33,191 nt of DNA, taken from NCBI GenBank assembly GCA_034722435.1, contig JAYENX010000041.1:1-33191 (forward strand), read 5' to 3'. The notes beneath the pieces are model-generated. The model was not told the DNA's origin, searched no databases, and saw only the letters and a program-made list of their open reading frames with translations. This DNA comes from Nanobdellota archaeon (lineage in GTDB: Archaea; Nanobdellota; Nanobdellia; Woesearchaeales; JAHWHD01). A program made the translations under genes and the position numbers. Of the stretch, positions 7,051 to 13,290 are shown piece by piece. Position 1 is the first letter of the stretch; each line of letters starts with the position of its first letter.

Positions 7051-7422
7051 ATGAATAAGAAAGCTCAAGGAATTTCTTTGAATGTTATCATTATTGCAGC
7101 TATTGCTTTGATAGTTCTTGTAGTTCTTATAGCTATTTTTACAGGAAGACTTAGTGGATTTCAGAGTGAGTTAGGAGAAATTTCAGACGCAGAAGTGTTT
7201 AGAGTACAAGCAATGAGTACTTCTCGTTGTGTTCCAAGCAAGCAAGGTATTGTTGATATTAAAGGTAGTCTTGTAGGTGAGTCCGAGTTACAGGCGAATC
7301 AGCAGTATAATGAACAAATTCAAGAAACAATTACTAATTGCGGGAGATTTGTACAATCTGTTAGAACTGAAGATGATAACAGACAAGCTTGTAATTCTGC
7401 AACTAGATGTGTTTGGAGATAA
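7051..7422 (+). CDS. Small type IV pilin-like protein, paralogue A (candidate major pilin)
   Basis: MNKKA|QGISLNVIIIAAIALIVLVVLIAIF; own TATA and SD; 4 Cys in the head. Confidence 0.85.
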   Translation: MNKKAQGISLNVIIIAAIALIVLVVLIAIFTGRLSGFQSELGEISDAEVFRVQAMSTSRCVPSKQGIVDIKGSLVGESELQANQQYNEQIQETITNCGRFVQSVRTEDDNRQACNSATRCVWR

Positions 7423-7512
7423 TTTTTTTATTTTTAATTTATTTTTCTTTAATTTATAGTTATTAAATTAATTAGTTTATGTTCTTTAAAACTTAATTAT
7501 TTTAATATGTAT

Positions 7513-8808
7513 TTATTTACAATATATGTTCCAGAAAAATTGTTTAATGGGTGAGGGACCTTTATTGTTCCAAATATCTTCATCAAACCATTTTGCAATT
7601 TTATAAGATTTGTTAATCATAATTATGTTTAATTTACCTTTTCCACTTCTTAGTCCGTTTATATCATAACCAAAACCGTAATCGTGAGAAGTTTTGTGTA
7701 TGCTGTAAGAAATTCCTCCGGAGTTTTGGGATAGTTGTGTTCCTGTTTTTGTTTGTTTATTTTCAGGAACTTTTCCAATTGAGAAACAGTTTTCTAAAGA
7801 TTTTGTATCTCCGATTTGTGCAGCTATAGTAACTGATTCGCCGAGTTCATGTAAAGTGGAGTTTATTCGGAGAGGTTTGATTTTTAGATGGAAAGATTGT
7901 TTTTTGTTTTTAGAAGGGCTGAAATAGATGTCTGCAGAGTTATTATGGTAATAGTTAGGGTTGCCCGCATCTAAAGTTGAGAATTTGAACCCATTTTCTA
8001 ATACTTTATACTTGCAGGATTTCCAGGTAGATTCTGTATTGTTGATGTGAGTTTTGTAGAATAATGTAGGGTATTGTTTTAGCCATTCAGGGTCTGCTAT
8101 GGTATGTATTATAACTTTTTTACCTTTAATTTTTGGGAAAATTCCTATCTCAGGTTTATAGTCATTATTTCTTAATATGTATTTATATCCTCTATGGATT
8201 GCGTTGGCTAAATCGGGCGTTATGTTGTTTACGTATCCCGATAGTTTAAATCTGAGGTCTAGGCTGTGGGTACTTATTGCAAATGTACTTTCTGGACCTC
8301 TTGAATAGTTCCCTTGTTTTGCAATATTTATTTCAGTTTTTGTTGATCTGTATATCAGTTCTGGTTTAGTGGATTTTTGGTTAACTATGATGTTTGGAAC
8401 TTTAATAAGAGGTTTTTGATATTGGGAAGTTTGTTTTGGTTTTTGGACTTGAGAATTTTTATTAGCTTGAAATTGATTGTTTCTATTATAAAATTCTTTA
8501 GAGGTTATAGTTATATCGCCAACATATTCTCCTTTGTATACTTTTTCTAAAAGTTCAGGGTCGATAACTCTATCATATTTGATATATTTAAACGGATCTT
8601 TTTGTTCTTCTTCTTTTTCTTTTTTCCGTTGTTTTTGACAATCTTTTAGAAATTCTTCCATAGATTCTCGCATCATTTTTTCTCCTATGCTTTCTCTGAT
8701 TTCTTTTTTATAGCCGTGTAATTTTAGACGATTTTGTGCTATAGCTTGATTAGAACCGAGAAAACATCCGAACATTGTTGCAAGAGCTATGAAAGTTTTG
8801 AATTTCAT
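7513..8808 (-). CDS. Secreted protein of unknown function (orphan 1)
   Basis: 431-aa ORF in an AT-rich background; Sec-type signal MKFKTFIALATMFGCFLGSNQAIA|Q. No family recognised. Confidence 0.7.
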   Translation of the reverse strand: MKFKTFIALATMFGCFLGSNQAIAQNRLKLHGYKKEIRESIGEKMMRESMEEFLKDCQKQRKKEKEEEQKDPFKYIKYDRVIDPELLEKVYKGEYVGDITITSKEFYNRNNQFQANKNSQVQKPKQTSQYQKPLIKVPNIIVNQKSTKPELIYRSTKTEINIAKQGNYSRGPESTFAISTHSLDLRFKLSGYVNNITPDLANAIHRGYKYILRNNDYKPEIGIFPKIKGKKVIIHTIADPEWLKQYPTLFYKTHINNTESTWKSCKYKVLENGFKFSTLDAGNPNYYHNNSADIYFSPSKNKKQSFHLKIKPLRINSTLHELGESVTIAAQIGDTKSLENCFSIGKVPENKQTKTGTQLSQNSGGISYSIHKTSHDYGFGYDINGLRSGKGKLNIIMINKSYKIAKWFDEDIWNNKGPSPIKQFFWNIYCK

Positions 8809-8853
8809 TTTATTTGTATTAAAACTTAATCTTATTTATTCTTTTTGATAAGA

Positions 8854-8894
8854 TTTATATATCCCTTTACTAATAACTCTATTTATAAAGAGGT
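8854..8894 (+). promoter_or_regulatory. TATA element (possibly bidirectional) and SD of pilin B
   Basis: TTTATATA at 8854-8861 lies between the divergent starts at 8808(-) and 8901(+); GAGGT at 8890-8894. Confidence 0.55.
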
Positions 8895-8900
8895 TATTTA

Positions 8901-11250: not shown

Positions 11251-12851
11251 TGTTCTTCAATACTTGTAATTCTATAATCCCTATCTATCTTTTTAATGGT
11301 GAATGTGTAAGCGTTGCCTCTTTTATGTTGAACGTTTACTTCATTATCTGAAATTTTTTTAACATTGAAGCATCTTCTATATTGGGAAAATTCTTTTATA
11401 AAATCGTTCTTTAGCCCCCTTTTATCAAATTGGTTTACTAAATTTCTTAGACTGCCTGCAGTAGTGTATCGTACAAGGTGGTAAGCAGTTGAATTGTATC
11501 CCATTTTTCGGCAACCTACTATGAACATTTTGACAGTTCTTTCTGGAGAATCGCGAAGAAATGTTTCATTTTGTGCAAATGGTCTGGCCGTAGTATTAGA
11601 TTGTTTTTCTTTAGGCGAGTGTATTGAACATTTTACTTTTCCATATTCGTCAACAGAGAATGTTCCCATCATAGCGCATGAAAAAGGTCTTTTACGTCTT
11701 ATTTTTTCAAAGTTTGAGCTAGTTACAACTGTGACTCCATTTTTGTCATAATTTTGCGTATATTTTTGTTCCTGATTATAGGCCTTTTTTCTTTTTTTAG
11801 TATTTGACCACAATCTATCTCTTTCGCATTTGAATTTCCATATGGCAAGAAGTTCTCTTGCACGATATTCTAGTCTTTTTATTGTTAATTGGTTTACAGC
11901 TTTTTTACTTGCTACATATATAAAAAATTGTTTGTAAGGTTCGTATTCAGAGAGGCCGTGTATAGTTTCACTATTAATTTCATGTTTTAGTCTTTTTTTC
12001 TTTTCTTCATATGATTCTTTTTCTTTTTTCTCTCCAAATACGAGACTTTGCGTTTCTTCGTCGAAAGTTATATTATCAATTGTGATTTTGTGATTTTTTT
12101 CGTCAATGATTATTTTTTTATCAGCAATTTCAAATTCATGAACTCCAAAATTTTGTCTTGTCATGTTATTAAGTATTTCTTTGCCGGCTAATGTGTAGTC
12201 TCCAAAATTGAACCAGTTTTCAAGCATTTTTGGTGCAAGTTCGGTCCATTTAGGATTTCCTGCTAAATAATAGAATGTTAGTTCATGACTTGCAAAAGGG
12301 TTATTTTTTAAAAGTCTTAGATTTTCGCCTCCTGCCGCTATTCCCATATCTAAAAATTCTTTACCCATTTTTCGGGATAATACTTCTGGATGATTTTGTT
12401 TTATTTTTTCATAATTAACCCAAAGTTTATCATAGAATAGTTTTTTAAATCCAGAAAATCCGCTGTCTCCGGTTAAGGAAGCATTTGCAATTGTGCCAAC
12501 CCATTCAAGTTGGTTGTATAGTAGTTCTTCCCATAATTGTATAGGAGTCACAACAATATGTCTTTGAGCTTTCATGAACCAGTGAGCCATTTTGAGGATG
12601 CCTGGTTTTTTGTAACATTTTCTTAAATATTGGATTGTAGAAATGGTGAATGCTTTTTTGAATTTCGGATTTTCATGTTCTTCACTTAAAACATAGTTTT
12701 CAAGTGGTTCTCTTTTTTTTTGTACTTCGATAATTTCTGTTCCTTTTTTAGGGGTTGGCCAGGTATCTGCATGAAGCGGGCTTATTAGAGCGAGATTTGT
12801 AGTGAGAATTCCAATTGCAATTATTTTGTTAATTCTTGATTCAAGATTCAT
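11247..12851 (-). CDS. Secreted protein of unknown function (orphan 2), possible C-terminal NTF2-like domain
   Basis: 534-aa ORF; signal MNLESRINKIIAIGILTTNLALISPLHA|D; the C-terminal part reads SPERTVKMF...FTIKKIDRDYRITSI. Confidence 0.7.
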   Translation of the reverse strand: MNLESRINKIIAIGILTTNLALISPLHADTWPTPKKGTEIIEVQKKREPLENYVLSEEHENPKFKKAFTISTIQYLRKCYKKPGILKMAHWFMKAQRHIVVTPIQLWEELLYNQLEWVGTIANASLTGDSGFSGFKKLFYDKLWVNYEKIKQNHPEVLSRKMGKEFLDMGIAAGGENLRLLKNNPFASHELTFYYLAGNPKWTELAPKMLENWFNFGDYTLAGKEILNNMTRQNFGVHEFEIADKKIIIDEKNHKITIDNITFDEETQSLVFGEKKEKESYEEKKKRLKHEINSETIHGLSEYEPYKQFFIYVASKKAVNQLTIKRLEYRARELLAIWKFKCERDRLWSNTKKRKKAYNQEQKYTQNYDKNGVTVVTSSNFEKIRRKRPFSCAMMGTFSVDEYGKVKCSIHSPKEKQSNTTARPFAQNETFLRDSPERTVKMFIVGCRKMGYNSTAYHLVRYTTAGSLRNLVNQFDKRGLKNDFIKEFSQYRRCFNVKKISDNEVNVQHKRGNAYTFTIKKIDRDYRITSIEEH

Positions 12852-12873
12852 TTATGCGATTATTTATTTCATA

Positions 12874-12980
12874 TTATAAAAATTTTACTTTTCCCTAAAC
12901 ATTTATATATGACTAAATATGTATTATATACATAAAAATTTAAAATATATTTAAAATATAAATTAAGATTAAAAGAGGTG
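12874..12980. promoter_or_regulatory. Divergent promoter region: TATA for orphan 2 (- strand) and TATA/SD for pilin C (+ strand)
   Basis: Minus-strand TTTTATAA at 12874-12881, about 23 nt upstream of the ATG at 12851 (leaderless spacing). Plus-strand TTTATATA at 12902-12909, TATTTAAA at 12948-12955 and GAGGTG at 12975-12980. Confidence 0.5.
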
Positions 12981-12987
12981 TTTTTTA

Positions 12988-13290
12988 ATGAAGAAAGGTC
13001 AAGGTTTACCTTTGAACACTATTGTTATTGCTGTTATAGTTATGATTGTTGCAGTAGTTCTTATTTTCATTTTTAGAACGCAAATTCAAAAAGAGGGTGA
13101 TTTTATTAGCGGTCAAATTGATTCTTTAGGAGATTGTGATTGTGATGGCGCTGCTAATTTTATAGACGATTGTGATTTTGATCCTAATATTCAAACTAAG
13201 AAAAAAGATCAGTCGTGTGGTTCTGGAATAGGTACTAAAAAAGAAGATTGTTTAGATGTTAAAGCAGGAGGATCTTGTCCCCCTAAATAA
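12988..13290 (+). CDS. Small type IV pilin-like protein, paralogue C, with Asp/Cys-rich head
   Basis: MKKG|QGLPLNTIVIAVIVMIVAVVLIFIF; DCDCDGAANFIDDCDFDP motif; 6 Cys. Confidence 0.85.
   Translation: MKKGQGLPLNTIVIAVIVMIVAVVLIFIFRTQIQKEGDFISGQIDSLGDCDCDGAANFIDDCDFDPNIQTKKKDQSCGSGIGTKKEDCLDVKAGGSCPPK

Follow-up and report, generated by a model that had tools for sequence, protein, structure and literature searches.

The pilin-like gene cluster on contig JAYENX010000041.1 of a Nanobdellota archaeon (assembly GCA_034722435.1) carries, within an otherwise co-directional array, two long antisense genes, here called orphan 1 and orphan 2, each of them divergent from a small pilin gene. The window is this one whole contig, with a length of 33,191 nucleotides (nt), from a genome of 1.3 Mb that is 94.5% complete. 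Both antisense open reading frames (ORFs) are real genes. Judging from comparisons of sequence and gene order, they are lineage-restricted, fast-evolving, and vertically inherited at fixed positions. To the explanation that we favour we give a little better than an even chance: their products would serve as accessory proteins of the cell surface that are expressed together with the pilins and were added to an old operon in one clade. The cluster and the elements around the two genes are arranged as follows (positions in the window; aa, amino acids; BRE, B recognition element; SD, Shine-Dalgarno sequence; SPase I, signal peptidase I; TSP3, thrombospondin type 3).

1087-4242: giant protein of 1051 aa with TSP3 repeats, at the start of the cluster
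4790-5827: 345-aa protein, the neighbour gene used for the survey and the tree
6990-7003, 8850-8862, and 12897-12910: occurrences of AAAcATTTATATAT, ahead of pilins A, B, and C
7051-7422, plus strand: small pilin A, 123 aa, MNKKAQG followed by a hydrophobic helix; own TATA and SD; convergent with orphan 1
7423-7512: convergent spacer of 90 nt, with several T5-T7 tracts on the plus strand directly 3′ of the pilin A stop
7513-8808, minus strand: orphan 1, 431 aa, Sec signal with lipobox-like MFGC
8809-8900: divergent spacer 1, 92 nt, BRE/TATA AAGATTTATATAT at 8850-8862 and SD AAGAGG at 8889-8894
8901-9146, plus strand: small pilin B, 81 aa, Cys-rich head
9264-11250, plus strand: two pilin-like genes (250 and 364 aa) in the transcription unit headed by pilin B
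10156-11250, plus strand: the second of these genes, 364 aa, convergent with orphan 2 and overlapping it by 4 nt
11247-12851, minus strand: orphan 2, 534 aa, Sec/SPase-I-like signal
12852-12987: divergent spacer 2, 136 nt, BRE/TATA AAACATTTATATAT at 12897-12910, second TATA-like word TATTTAAA, SD AAGAGGTG
12988-13290, plus strand: small pilin C, 100 aa, TSP3-like Asp/Cys repeats in the head

Open frames as long as these are not expected by chance. At a GC content of about 30%, their probability is estimated at ∼3e-16 for orphan 1 and ∼6e-20 for orphan 2, and the largest plus-strand ORFs across the same two regions have only 57 and 85 aa. The GC skew drops from ∼0.25–0.43 to 0.03–0.13 exactly at the two antisense ORFs, as expected from a switch of the coding strand. 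The basic layout had been described before in a reading made from the sequence alone (the sequence-only reading): two long minus-strand ORFs inside a co-directional array, each divergent from a small pilin over an AT-rich spacer with TATA elements, and the second one overlapping the convergent gene by 4 nt. All of this is present, with spacers of 92 and 136 nt and an overlap that reads TTAG (11247-11250). The same reading spoke of a repeated module. This holds for the layout, which occurs twice, and not for the sequence, as there is no sequence relationship between orphan 1 and orphan 2.

We compared the studied genome (G000) with a genome of the same genus (G001), a genome of the same family but another genus (G002), a 99-kb JGI contig (L029), and an orphan 2 orthologue found on two short Logan contigs (P0002). 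The G001 and G002 genomes are flagged unpublished, and all statements on these two depend on them. Both positions, hereafter slot 1 and slot 2, are filled in G000, G001, and L029, and every clade member examined has intact ORFs of 270–650 aa in both of them; the source assembly of P0002 covers slot 2 only, where P0002 has the same neighbours as orphan 2. Orphan 2 shares 36–37% identity with P0002 and with the G001 protein; with the L029 protein it shares 33%, over the N-terminal part. The slot-1 orthologues have 431 aa in G000, 270 aa in G001, and 416 aa in L029. Orphan 1 shares 73% identity with the G001 protein over the first 15 aa, which form the signal peptide, and is barely alignable elsewhere; identity to the G001 or L029 protein is about 20%, over a part of the length only. 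When the mature regions are aligned locally and compared with shuffled sequences, the scores are z = 7.0 (G000-L029), 4.5 (L029-G001), and 3.1 (G000-G001), and these weak matches are collinear. By this measure, the slot-1 proteins are homologous across the three genomes. For comparison, the plus-strand neighbour genes of G000 are 30–64% identical to those of G001 or L029. Orphan 2 thus evolves at the rate of the fastest plus-strand neighbours and orphan 1 faster than any of them. At amino-acid identities of ∼35% or less, the orthologues are saturated. On L029, the orphan 2 orthologue and the small pilin are separated by a 119-aa gene (7352-7711) with neither signal peptide nor transmembrane segment.

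A quick maximum-likelihood tree of the 345-aa protein has the topology (G002,(L029,(G000,G001))), with Shimodaira-Hasegawa approximate likelihood ratio (SH-aLRT) supports of 94/99/97. The genomes bearing both slots make a single clade in this tree (SH-aLRT 99). The topology agrees with a single occupation of slot 2, before the ancestor of the family, and a later single occupation of slot 1. Beyond this clade the two proteins were not found. A single-sequence search with orphan 1 gave no homologue among 5.8e9 clusters, and searches that used either single sequences or the alignment of the slot-1 proteins returned clade members only. A profile hidden Markov model of orphan 2 retrieved four family members in 1.84e9 representatives, and the family contexts examined (L029, L030/L031, and G001) all correspond to the same slot. 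No paralogue of either orphan was found in its own genome. The sequence-only reading had allowed for orphans standing elsewhere, with no link to pilins; so far none has been found outside the pilin cluster.

The array itself has a much wider distribution. Relatives of the 345-aa protein exist in 50 of the 61 sampled genomes of the order, and ORF maps were drawn for 10 loci from genomes, 26 from metagenomes, and 43 from GTDB. The recurrent architecture starts with a giant protein with immunoglobulin-like (Ig) and TSP3 domains, continues with about 15 pilin-like genes, among them one to three pilins of ∼90 aa and a later one of ∼100 aa, and ends with RPA. In this canonical form the cluster is co-directional and has no long antisense gene. 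A metagenome scan with the 345-aa neighbour gave distant loci only (≤40% identity) and no new members of the clade. From this distribution, the pilin-like operon is old and common to the order Woesearchaeales, and the antisense genes are young.

In the window, nearly all genes between 1087 and 16872 are on the plus strand, many of them overlapping or abutting, and most begin with a short basic leader and a hydrophobic helix, i.e., with a class III, pilin-like signal. The criterion for a class III signal was a hydrophobic helix of ∼20 aa preceded by a short, basic leader with [KR]-[GA] at its end. The small pilins have such N-termini (MNKKAQG, MEKKAQS, and MKKGQG, each followed by an I/V/L/A-rich helix), and the 93-nt 5′ ends of their genes are paralogous, with 70–75% identity. 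Curated pilin models gave no match above cut-off, the only hit being Flp1_like with 16.5 bits (cut-off 33.5). The assignment as pilins rests on the signal motif and on the context. Orthologues are 62–64% identical for small pilin A (in G001 and L029), 58–59% for small pilin B, and 52–60% for small pilin C. Outside the window, the genome encodes a Peptidase_A24 prepilin peptidase (contig C36, 58.5 bits) and T2SSE-type ATPases (C59, 128 bits; C8, 63 bits), so machinery is available for the class III proteins. Two pilin heads have features of their own. The head of pilin B (residues 43–74) matches the Pfam family Defensin_beta_2 (23.4 bits, cut-off 22.2), which places a Cys-rich knot directly on the pilin helix, and the head repeats of pilin C (DCDCDG...DDCDFDP) resemble the TSP3 repeats of the giant protein at 1087-4242.

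At 16925-20191, RPA, a YdjM-like membrane protein, and RadA follow directly on the pilin array. The same is found in complete relatives (G027, G034, G037, and others), and this adjacency is conserved across the order. The downstream genes are archaeal (RPA with DUF2240, RadA, RadB-like, AglB-like), related contigs carry the labels Candidatus Woesearchaeota or Nanoarchaeota, and the sole public run containing the stretch is a brine metagenome. The source organism is a Woesearchaeota (DPANN) archaeon, represented by a metagenome-assembled genome from brine; the Woesearchaeota labels bear out the DPANN origin that the sequence-only reading had assumed. Among the public records, one contig with this Woesearchaeal cluster (L145) is deposited as 'Candidatus Aminicenantes bacterium', and many of the cluster records L116–L177 are deposited as 'uncultured Methanosarcinales archaeon'. 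From their gene content, these deposits are probably mis-binned or mislabelled.

The element AAAcATTTATATAT, made of BRE and TATA, followed by the SD AAGAGG(TG), precedes every one of the six small-pilin genes whose upstream regions were examined (three in G000, three in G001). Since all six have it, the small pilins are separate and probably strongly expressed units. As far as these signals delimit them, the antisense genes are placed exactly at the boundaries of the small-pilin units. The T5-T7 tracts that follow pilin A look like archaeal oligo-T terminators and may end the unit there.

In spacer 1, the distance of the TATA AAGATTTATATAT is ∼38–39 nt to the ATG of pilin B and 45 nt to that of orphan 1. 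In spacer 2, AAACATTTATATAT is 50 nt away from the ATG of orphan 2 and ∼77–78 nt from that of pilin C; the second TATA-like word TATTTAAA is 32 nt from the latter. Over the five genus-level spacers, the distances of TTTATATA to the antisense and the pilin ATG are 45/39, 50/78, 55/40, 44/40, and 44/82 nt. All five thus have one TATA between divergent genes at distances compatible with both: it is always 44–55 nt from the antisense ATG, and it is 38–40 nt from the pilin ATG in three of them and ∼77–82 nt in the other two, which have a nearer second TATA-like word. Divergent transcription start sites in archaea commonly flank one shared TATA, ∼52 bp apart (Warman et al., bioRxiv 10.1101/2020.01.31.928960). 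Given that divergent firing from one TATA is known, this geometry makes it plausible that the pilin TATA is used bidirectionally, for orphan and pilin.

The orphan proteins have the organization of exported proteins. Each has one N-terminal hydrophobic segment and no further transmembrane-like window. In orphan 1, the Sec signal with MFGC (Cys15) leads into a helix rich in K/E, then into a linker rich in Q/N/K, and finally into a beta-rich C-terminal region. The motif around the cysteine is MFGC in G000, MLGC in G001, and LSAC in L029. Under the consensus applied here ([LVI][ASTVI][GAS]C at the end of the hydrophobic region of a Sec signal), the LSAC of the L029 protein is a textbook lipobox by its letters; the MFGC of orphan 1 is atypical, and a semi-hydrophobic stretch follows its cysteine. 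Genome-wide, ∼31 ORFs have classical lipobox N-termini. The sequence-only reading had assigned to both orphans Sec/SPase I signals, rather than class III ones. That they are of Sec type holds for both, and the LHA|D of orphan 2 is indeed SPase-I-like. The AIA|Q site proposed for orphan 1 is less likely, since the lipobox-like Cys15 is kept in two orthologues. Because both orthologue N-termini read keep this cysteine, orphan 1 is more likely a lipoprotein than an SPase-I substrate, and it is probably lipid-anchored via that residue.

The orphan 2 family is more varied in this respect: the signal ends in LHA|D, with no cysteine, in G000, in ALA|D in P0002, in LFSC in G001, and in NTGC in L029. 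Two of the four members (G001 and L029) thus have a putative lipobox, and the family may be read as toggling between anchored (lipobox) and released (SPase-I) forms by species. Orphan 2 has a helical N-domain of ∼300 aa, a middle module with the conserved motif Cys-x15-Cys-Ser-x-His-Ser, and a short alpha/beta C-terminus. Comparison with P0002, P0004, and P0005 shows a modular family, with the N-domain in all four members. L029 lacks the middle Cys-motif module, and a C-terminal domain of ∼120 aa is common to G001, P0002, and L029 (z = 4.9–10.5) and absent in G000. Sequence searches with the orphans and their orthologues in Pfam, NCBIfam, PHROGs, PADLOC, and the PDB gave no significant match, in agreement with the earlier description of genes belonging to no recognisable family. 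A search of the ESM Atlas returned only rows below threshold or with a low template-modelling score. The AlphaFold2 models have a mean predicted local distance difference test (pLDDT) score of 33 for orphan 1 (single sequence) and 39 for orphan 2 (4-row alignment), too poor for a fold search.

Taken together, these data suggest the following course of events. The orphans would be lineage-specific, Sec-exported cell-surface proteins that entered the older, order-wide pilin-like operon of Woesearchaeales in the ancestor of one small clade. The entry points would have been the sole permissive places, the promoter-bearing gaps before independently transcribed small pilins. Since then they would have been inherited vertically at fixed positions, with very fast divergence and domain shuffling, as is frequent among exposed surface proteins. 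They would be transcribed divergently from the nearly palindromic TATA of the pilin and hence co-expressed with it, and, going by their position, would most likely work together with the apparatus of pilus and adhesin, in attachment or in contact with a partner. The exclusive co-location of orphans and pilins, its persistence across deep divergence, and the TATA geometry suggest a functional link between the orphans and the pilus.

Several observations weigh against this explanation. As most of the order has the cluster without orphans, these are not needed for the core apparatus. With mean pLDDT values of 33 and 39, the function is deduced from the location alone. In slot 1 of L029, and in G002, the antisense ATG has a TATA-like word of its own ∼22 nt away, which points to an independent, leaderless promoter there and not to a shared one; TATA-like words are also common in such AT-rich DNA. 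The orphans have no SD, unlike the pilins. Finally, the tight head-to-head pairing is not strict: the slot-1 spacer of L029 has 390 nt, and a non-pilin gene of 119 aa separates the orphan 2 orthologue from the pilin in the same contig.

The more distant genome of the family differs in both slots. In G002, slot 1 is empty, with pilins A and B adjacent and no antisense gene upstream of pilin B, and slot 2 has two antisense ORFs. The first of them encodes a protein of 554 aa with the lipobox AIQGC, unrelated to orphan 2. It has a near-threshold match to the PGAP1-like alpha/beta-hydrolases (23.5 bits, cut-off 24.3), with a GHS motif, and an insignificant one to RcpB (E = 0.04). The second, of 246 aa, starts at the codon after the stop of the 554-aa ORF and in the same frame (L019:9756-12161), which may correspond to two abutting genes or to a stop-interrupted gene of 801 aa. 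This 246-aa ORF was tried as a relative of the orphan 1 core (z = 4.3), which was not confirmed against other slot-1 members. Neither orphan family aligned significantly with the slot-2 proteins of G002 in hhalign.

Antisense insertions also occur elsewhere in the order. A second and unrelated antisense family is common to L123 and G052; its proteins, of 204 and 224 aa, have an N-terminal anchor, are 32–34% identical, and are encoded as follows.

L123:17868-18482: member of the second antisense family
L024 (G052):13866-14540, flipped coordinates: member of the second antisense family

These genes stand tail-to-tail with a giant pilin-like gene (1383 and 1482 aa, respectively), which they overlap by 4 and 14 nt, and the one of L123 is also head-to-head with a 110-aa pilin. 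In G052 there are two further small antisense ORFs with signal peptides between small pilins, plus a cytoplasmic gene. L130 has PIN-like genes ahead of small pilins, and L146 has a regulator-like gene within the array. Unit boundaries near small pilins are therefore recurrent insertion points, which fits a permissive gap and the capture of a promoter alike.

The first of these two options leads to the rival that survives best, and to which we give a real, if clearly lesser, chance. The orphans would be passengers, i.e., ordinary lineage-specific surface lipoproteins with no tie to the pilus, and the gaps would merely tolerate insertion without breaking translational coupling. The cluster without orphans in most of the order is what one would expect in this case, as are the unrelated antisense insertions at similar gaps in L130, L146, and G052, the unrelated protein in slot 2 of G002, and the varying pairing distances in L029. 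However, passengers would hardly be expected to keep intact ORFs of 270–650 aa while their neighbours diverged to 30–64% identity, to be missing outside the pilin cluster, or to hold the spacing between TATA and antisense ATG at 44–55 nt in five spacers.

A stronger version of the explanation that we favour is doubtful. Each small-pilin promoter of the clade would be a truly bidirectional unit co-expressing the pilin and a dedicated, rapidly diversifying lipoprotein for contact with partner cells, a lineage-specific module of host interaction shaped by an arms race. In such a module, the lipoprotein might serve, for instance, as anchor, tip partner, or membrane-active factor; the slot-2 protein of G002 looks lipase-like.

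The sequence-only reading had gone in yet another direction. It took each orphan and its adjacent small pilin for an exchangeable cassette of cargo plus pilin, swapped between strains, which we now regard as very unlikely. In its support one can cite that the layout occurs twice, that hypervariable mature regions follow signal peptides that are relatively well conserved (as in the 73% over 15 aa between orphan 1 of G000 and its G001 counterpart), and that the slot-2 protein of G002 has an unrelated body behind a similar-looking N-terminus (MSLVDKIRK versus MNLESRINK), which is suggestive only. However, under this model relatives should carry unrelated secreted genes at the same positions, and the genes found there in G000, G001, L029, and the P0002 source are homologous, with a single origin on the tree. 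Turnover of the slots is seen only at the distance of the family, where G002 has an empty slot 1 and an unrelated lipoprotein in slot 2, and not within the clade. Nor are there traces of mobility. Between 6900 and 13400 no bracketing repeats were found, only the paralogous 5′ ends of the pilins and short matches at chance level, and no recombinase, integrase, or transposase domain was found in the scanned ORFs of the window. Codon usage is native: the two orphans are at the 32nd and 41st percentiles of the genome ORFs for codon log-likelihood, and at the 63rd and 45th for GC content at third codon positions. Because the pilins are conserved throughout the order without an antisense gene, they are not part of a cassette. 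On this comparative evidence, the cassette model is largely refuted for the sampled species.

It is just as hard to credit, or slightly harder, that the antisense transcription matters more than the proteins. In this reading, convergent transcription into the upstream pilin unit, from 3′ ends that overlap and leave no space for a terminator, would insulate the pilin units or attenuate read-through between them, the proteins being secondary. Overlapping stop codons (by 4 nt in G000, 8 nt in G001, and 11 nt in the P0002 source) speak for it, as do the 4- and 14-nt overlaps between the L123/G052 antisense family and the giant upstream gene. But L029 has a 13-nt gap and no overlap, and orphan 1 is separated from pilin A by the 90-nt convergent spacer with its T-tracts. 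Moreover, no species examined has lost the long ORFs or their signal peptides, which speaks for selection on the proteins. Finally, shadow ORFs or an assembly inversion would agree with the low-confidence AlphaFold2 and ESM Atlas models and with the lack of database relatives beyond the clade, but are practically discarded by the open-frame chance estimated below 1e-15, the skew switch at both ORFs, and the conserved signal peptides, and refuted by a synteny that holds, in identical orientation and slots, across at least three further independent assemblies.

Woesearchaeota are uncultured, and a large operon of pilins and adhesin is a prime candidate for their contact apparatus. At this locus the operon is conserved order-wide, yet single clades add fast-evolving exported lipoproteins at pilin promoters. 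If co-expressed with the pilins, the orphans would mark a lineage-specific, possibly host-specific, adaptation of the contact apparatus, and would provide a natural example of promoter sharing via the symmetric archaeal TATA. If they are passengers, the locus shows where a tightly coupled archaeal operon tolerates insertions.

Bacterial type IV pilus and Tad systems have lipoproteins, such as PilP, PilF/PilW, and TadD, whose genes are in pilus clusters and that act outside the cytoplasmic membrane. They serve the outer-membrane secretin, which archaea do not have. The orphans have no sequence or fold similarity to these proteins, the only hint being the insignificant RcpB match of the G002 protein; the likeness is one of analogy only. 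Among archaea, there are type IV filament loci with pilins and accessory adhesins (PMC13705601), reportedly also described by Makarova et al. in 2016. Such loci resemble the present one in having an array of genes with class III signals, a large upstream adhesin-like protein with Ig/TSP3 domains, and small pilins with their own promoters; here, the prepilin peptidase and the ATPases are encoded elsewhere in the genome. Type IV filament systems are reported to occur widely in most phyla, with the exception of DPANN and Asgard archaea (PMC13705601). In a limited literature search, we found no description of antisense Sec/lipoprotein genes embedded in pilin arrays.

The closest parallels for the proteins themselves are the lipoprotein substrates of AliA/AliB in Haloferax volcanii (PMC12462473), which likewise have a Sec signal ending in a lipobox-like [LVIM]-x-[GAS]-C, a soluble ectodomain, and no other transmembrane segment. 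The orphans differ from archaeal lipobox lipoproteins in their mature domains, which have no detectable homologues, in the atypical MFGC of orphan 1, and in the missing cysteine of orphan 2 in G000. Lipoproteins are predicted to be prevalent in DPANN, where AliA is also reported (PMC12462473). For the spacers, the parallel is with the bidirectional archaeal promoters of Warman et al. (bioRxiv 10.1101/2020.01.31.928960), since here, too, a single, nearly palindromic TATA (TTTATATAT) stands between divergent start codons. The present spacers differ in that the BRE points to the pilin, alternative TATA-like words are present, and G002 and L029 seem to rely on a proximal element of their own. DPANN genomes commonly encode orphan surface proteins, and what distinguishes these two is their antisense placement at pilin promoters and their conservation throughout a clade.

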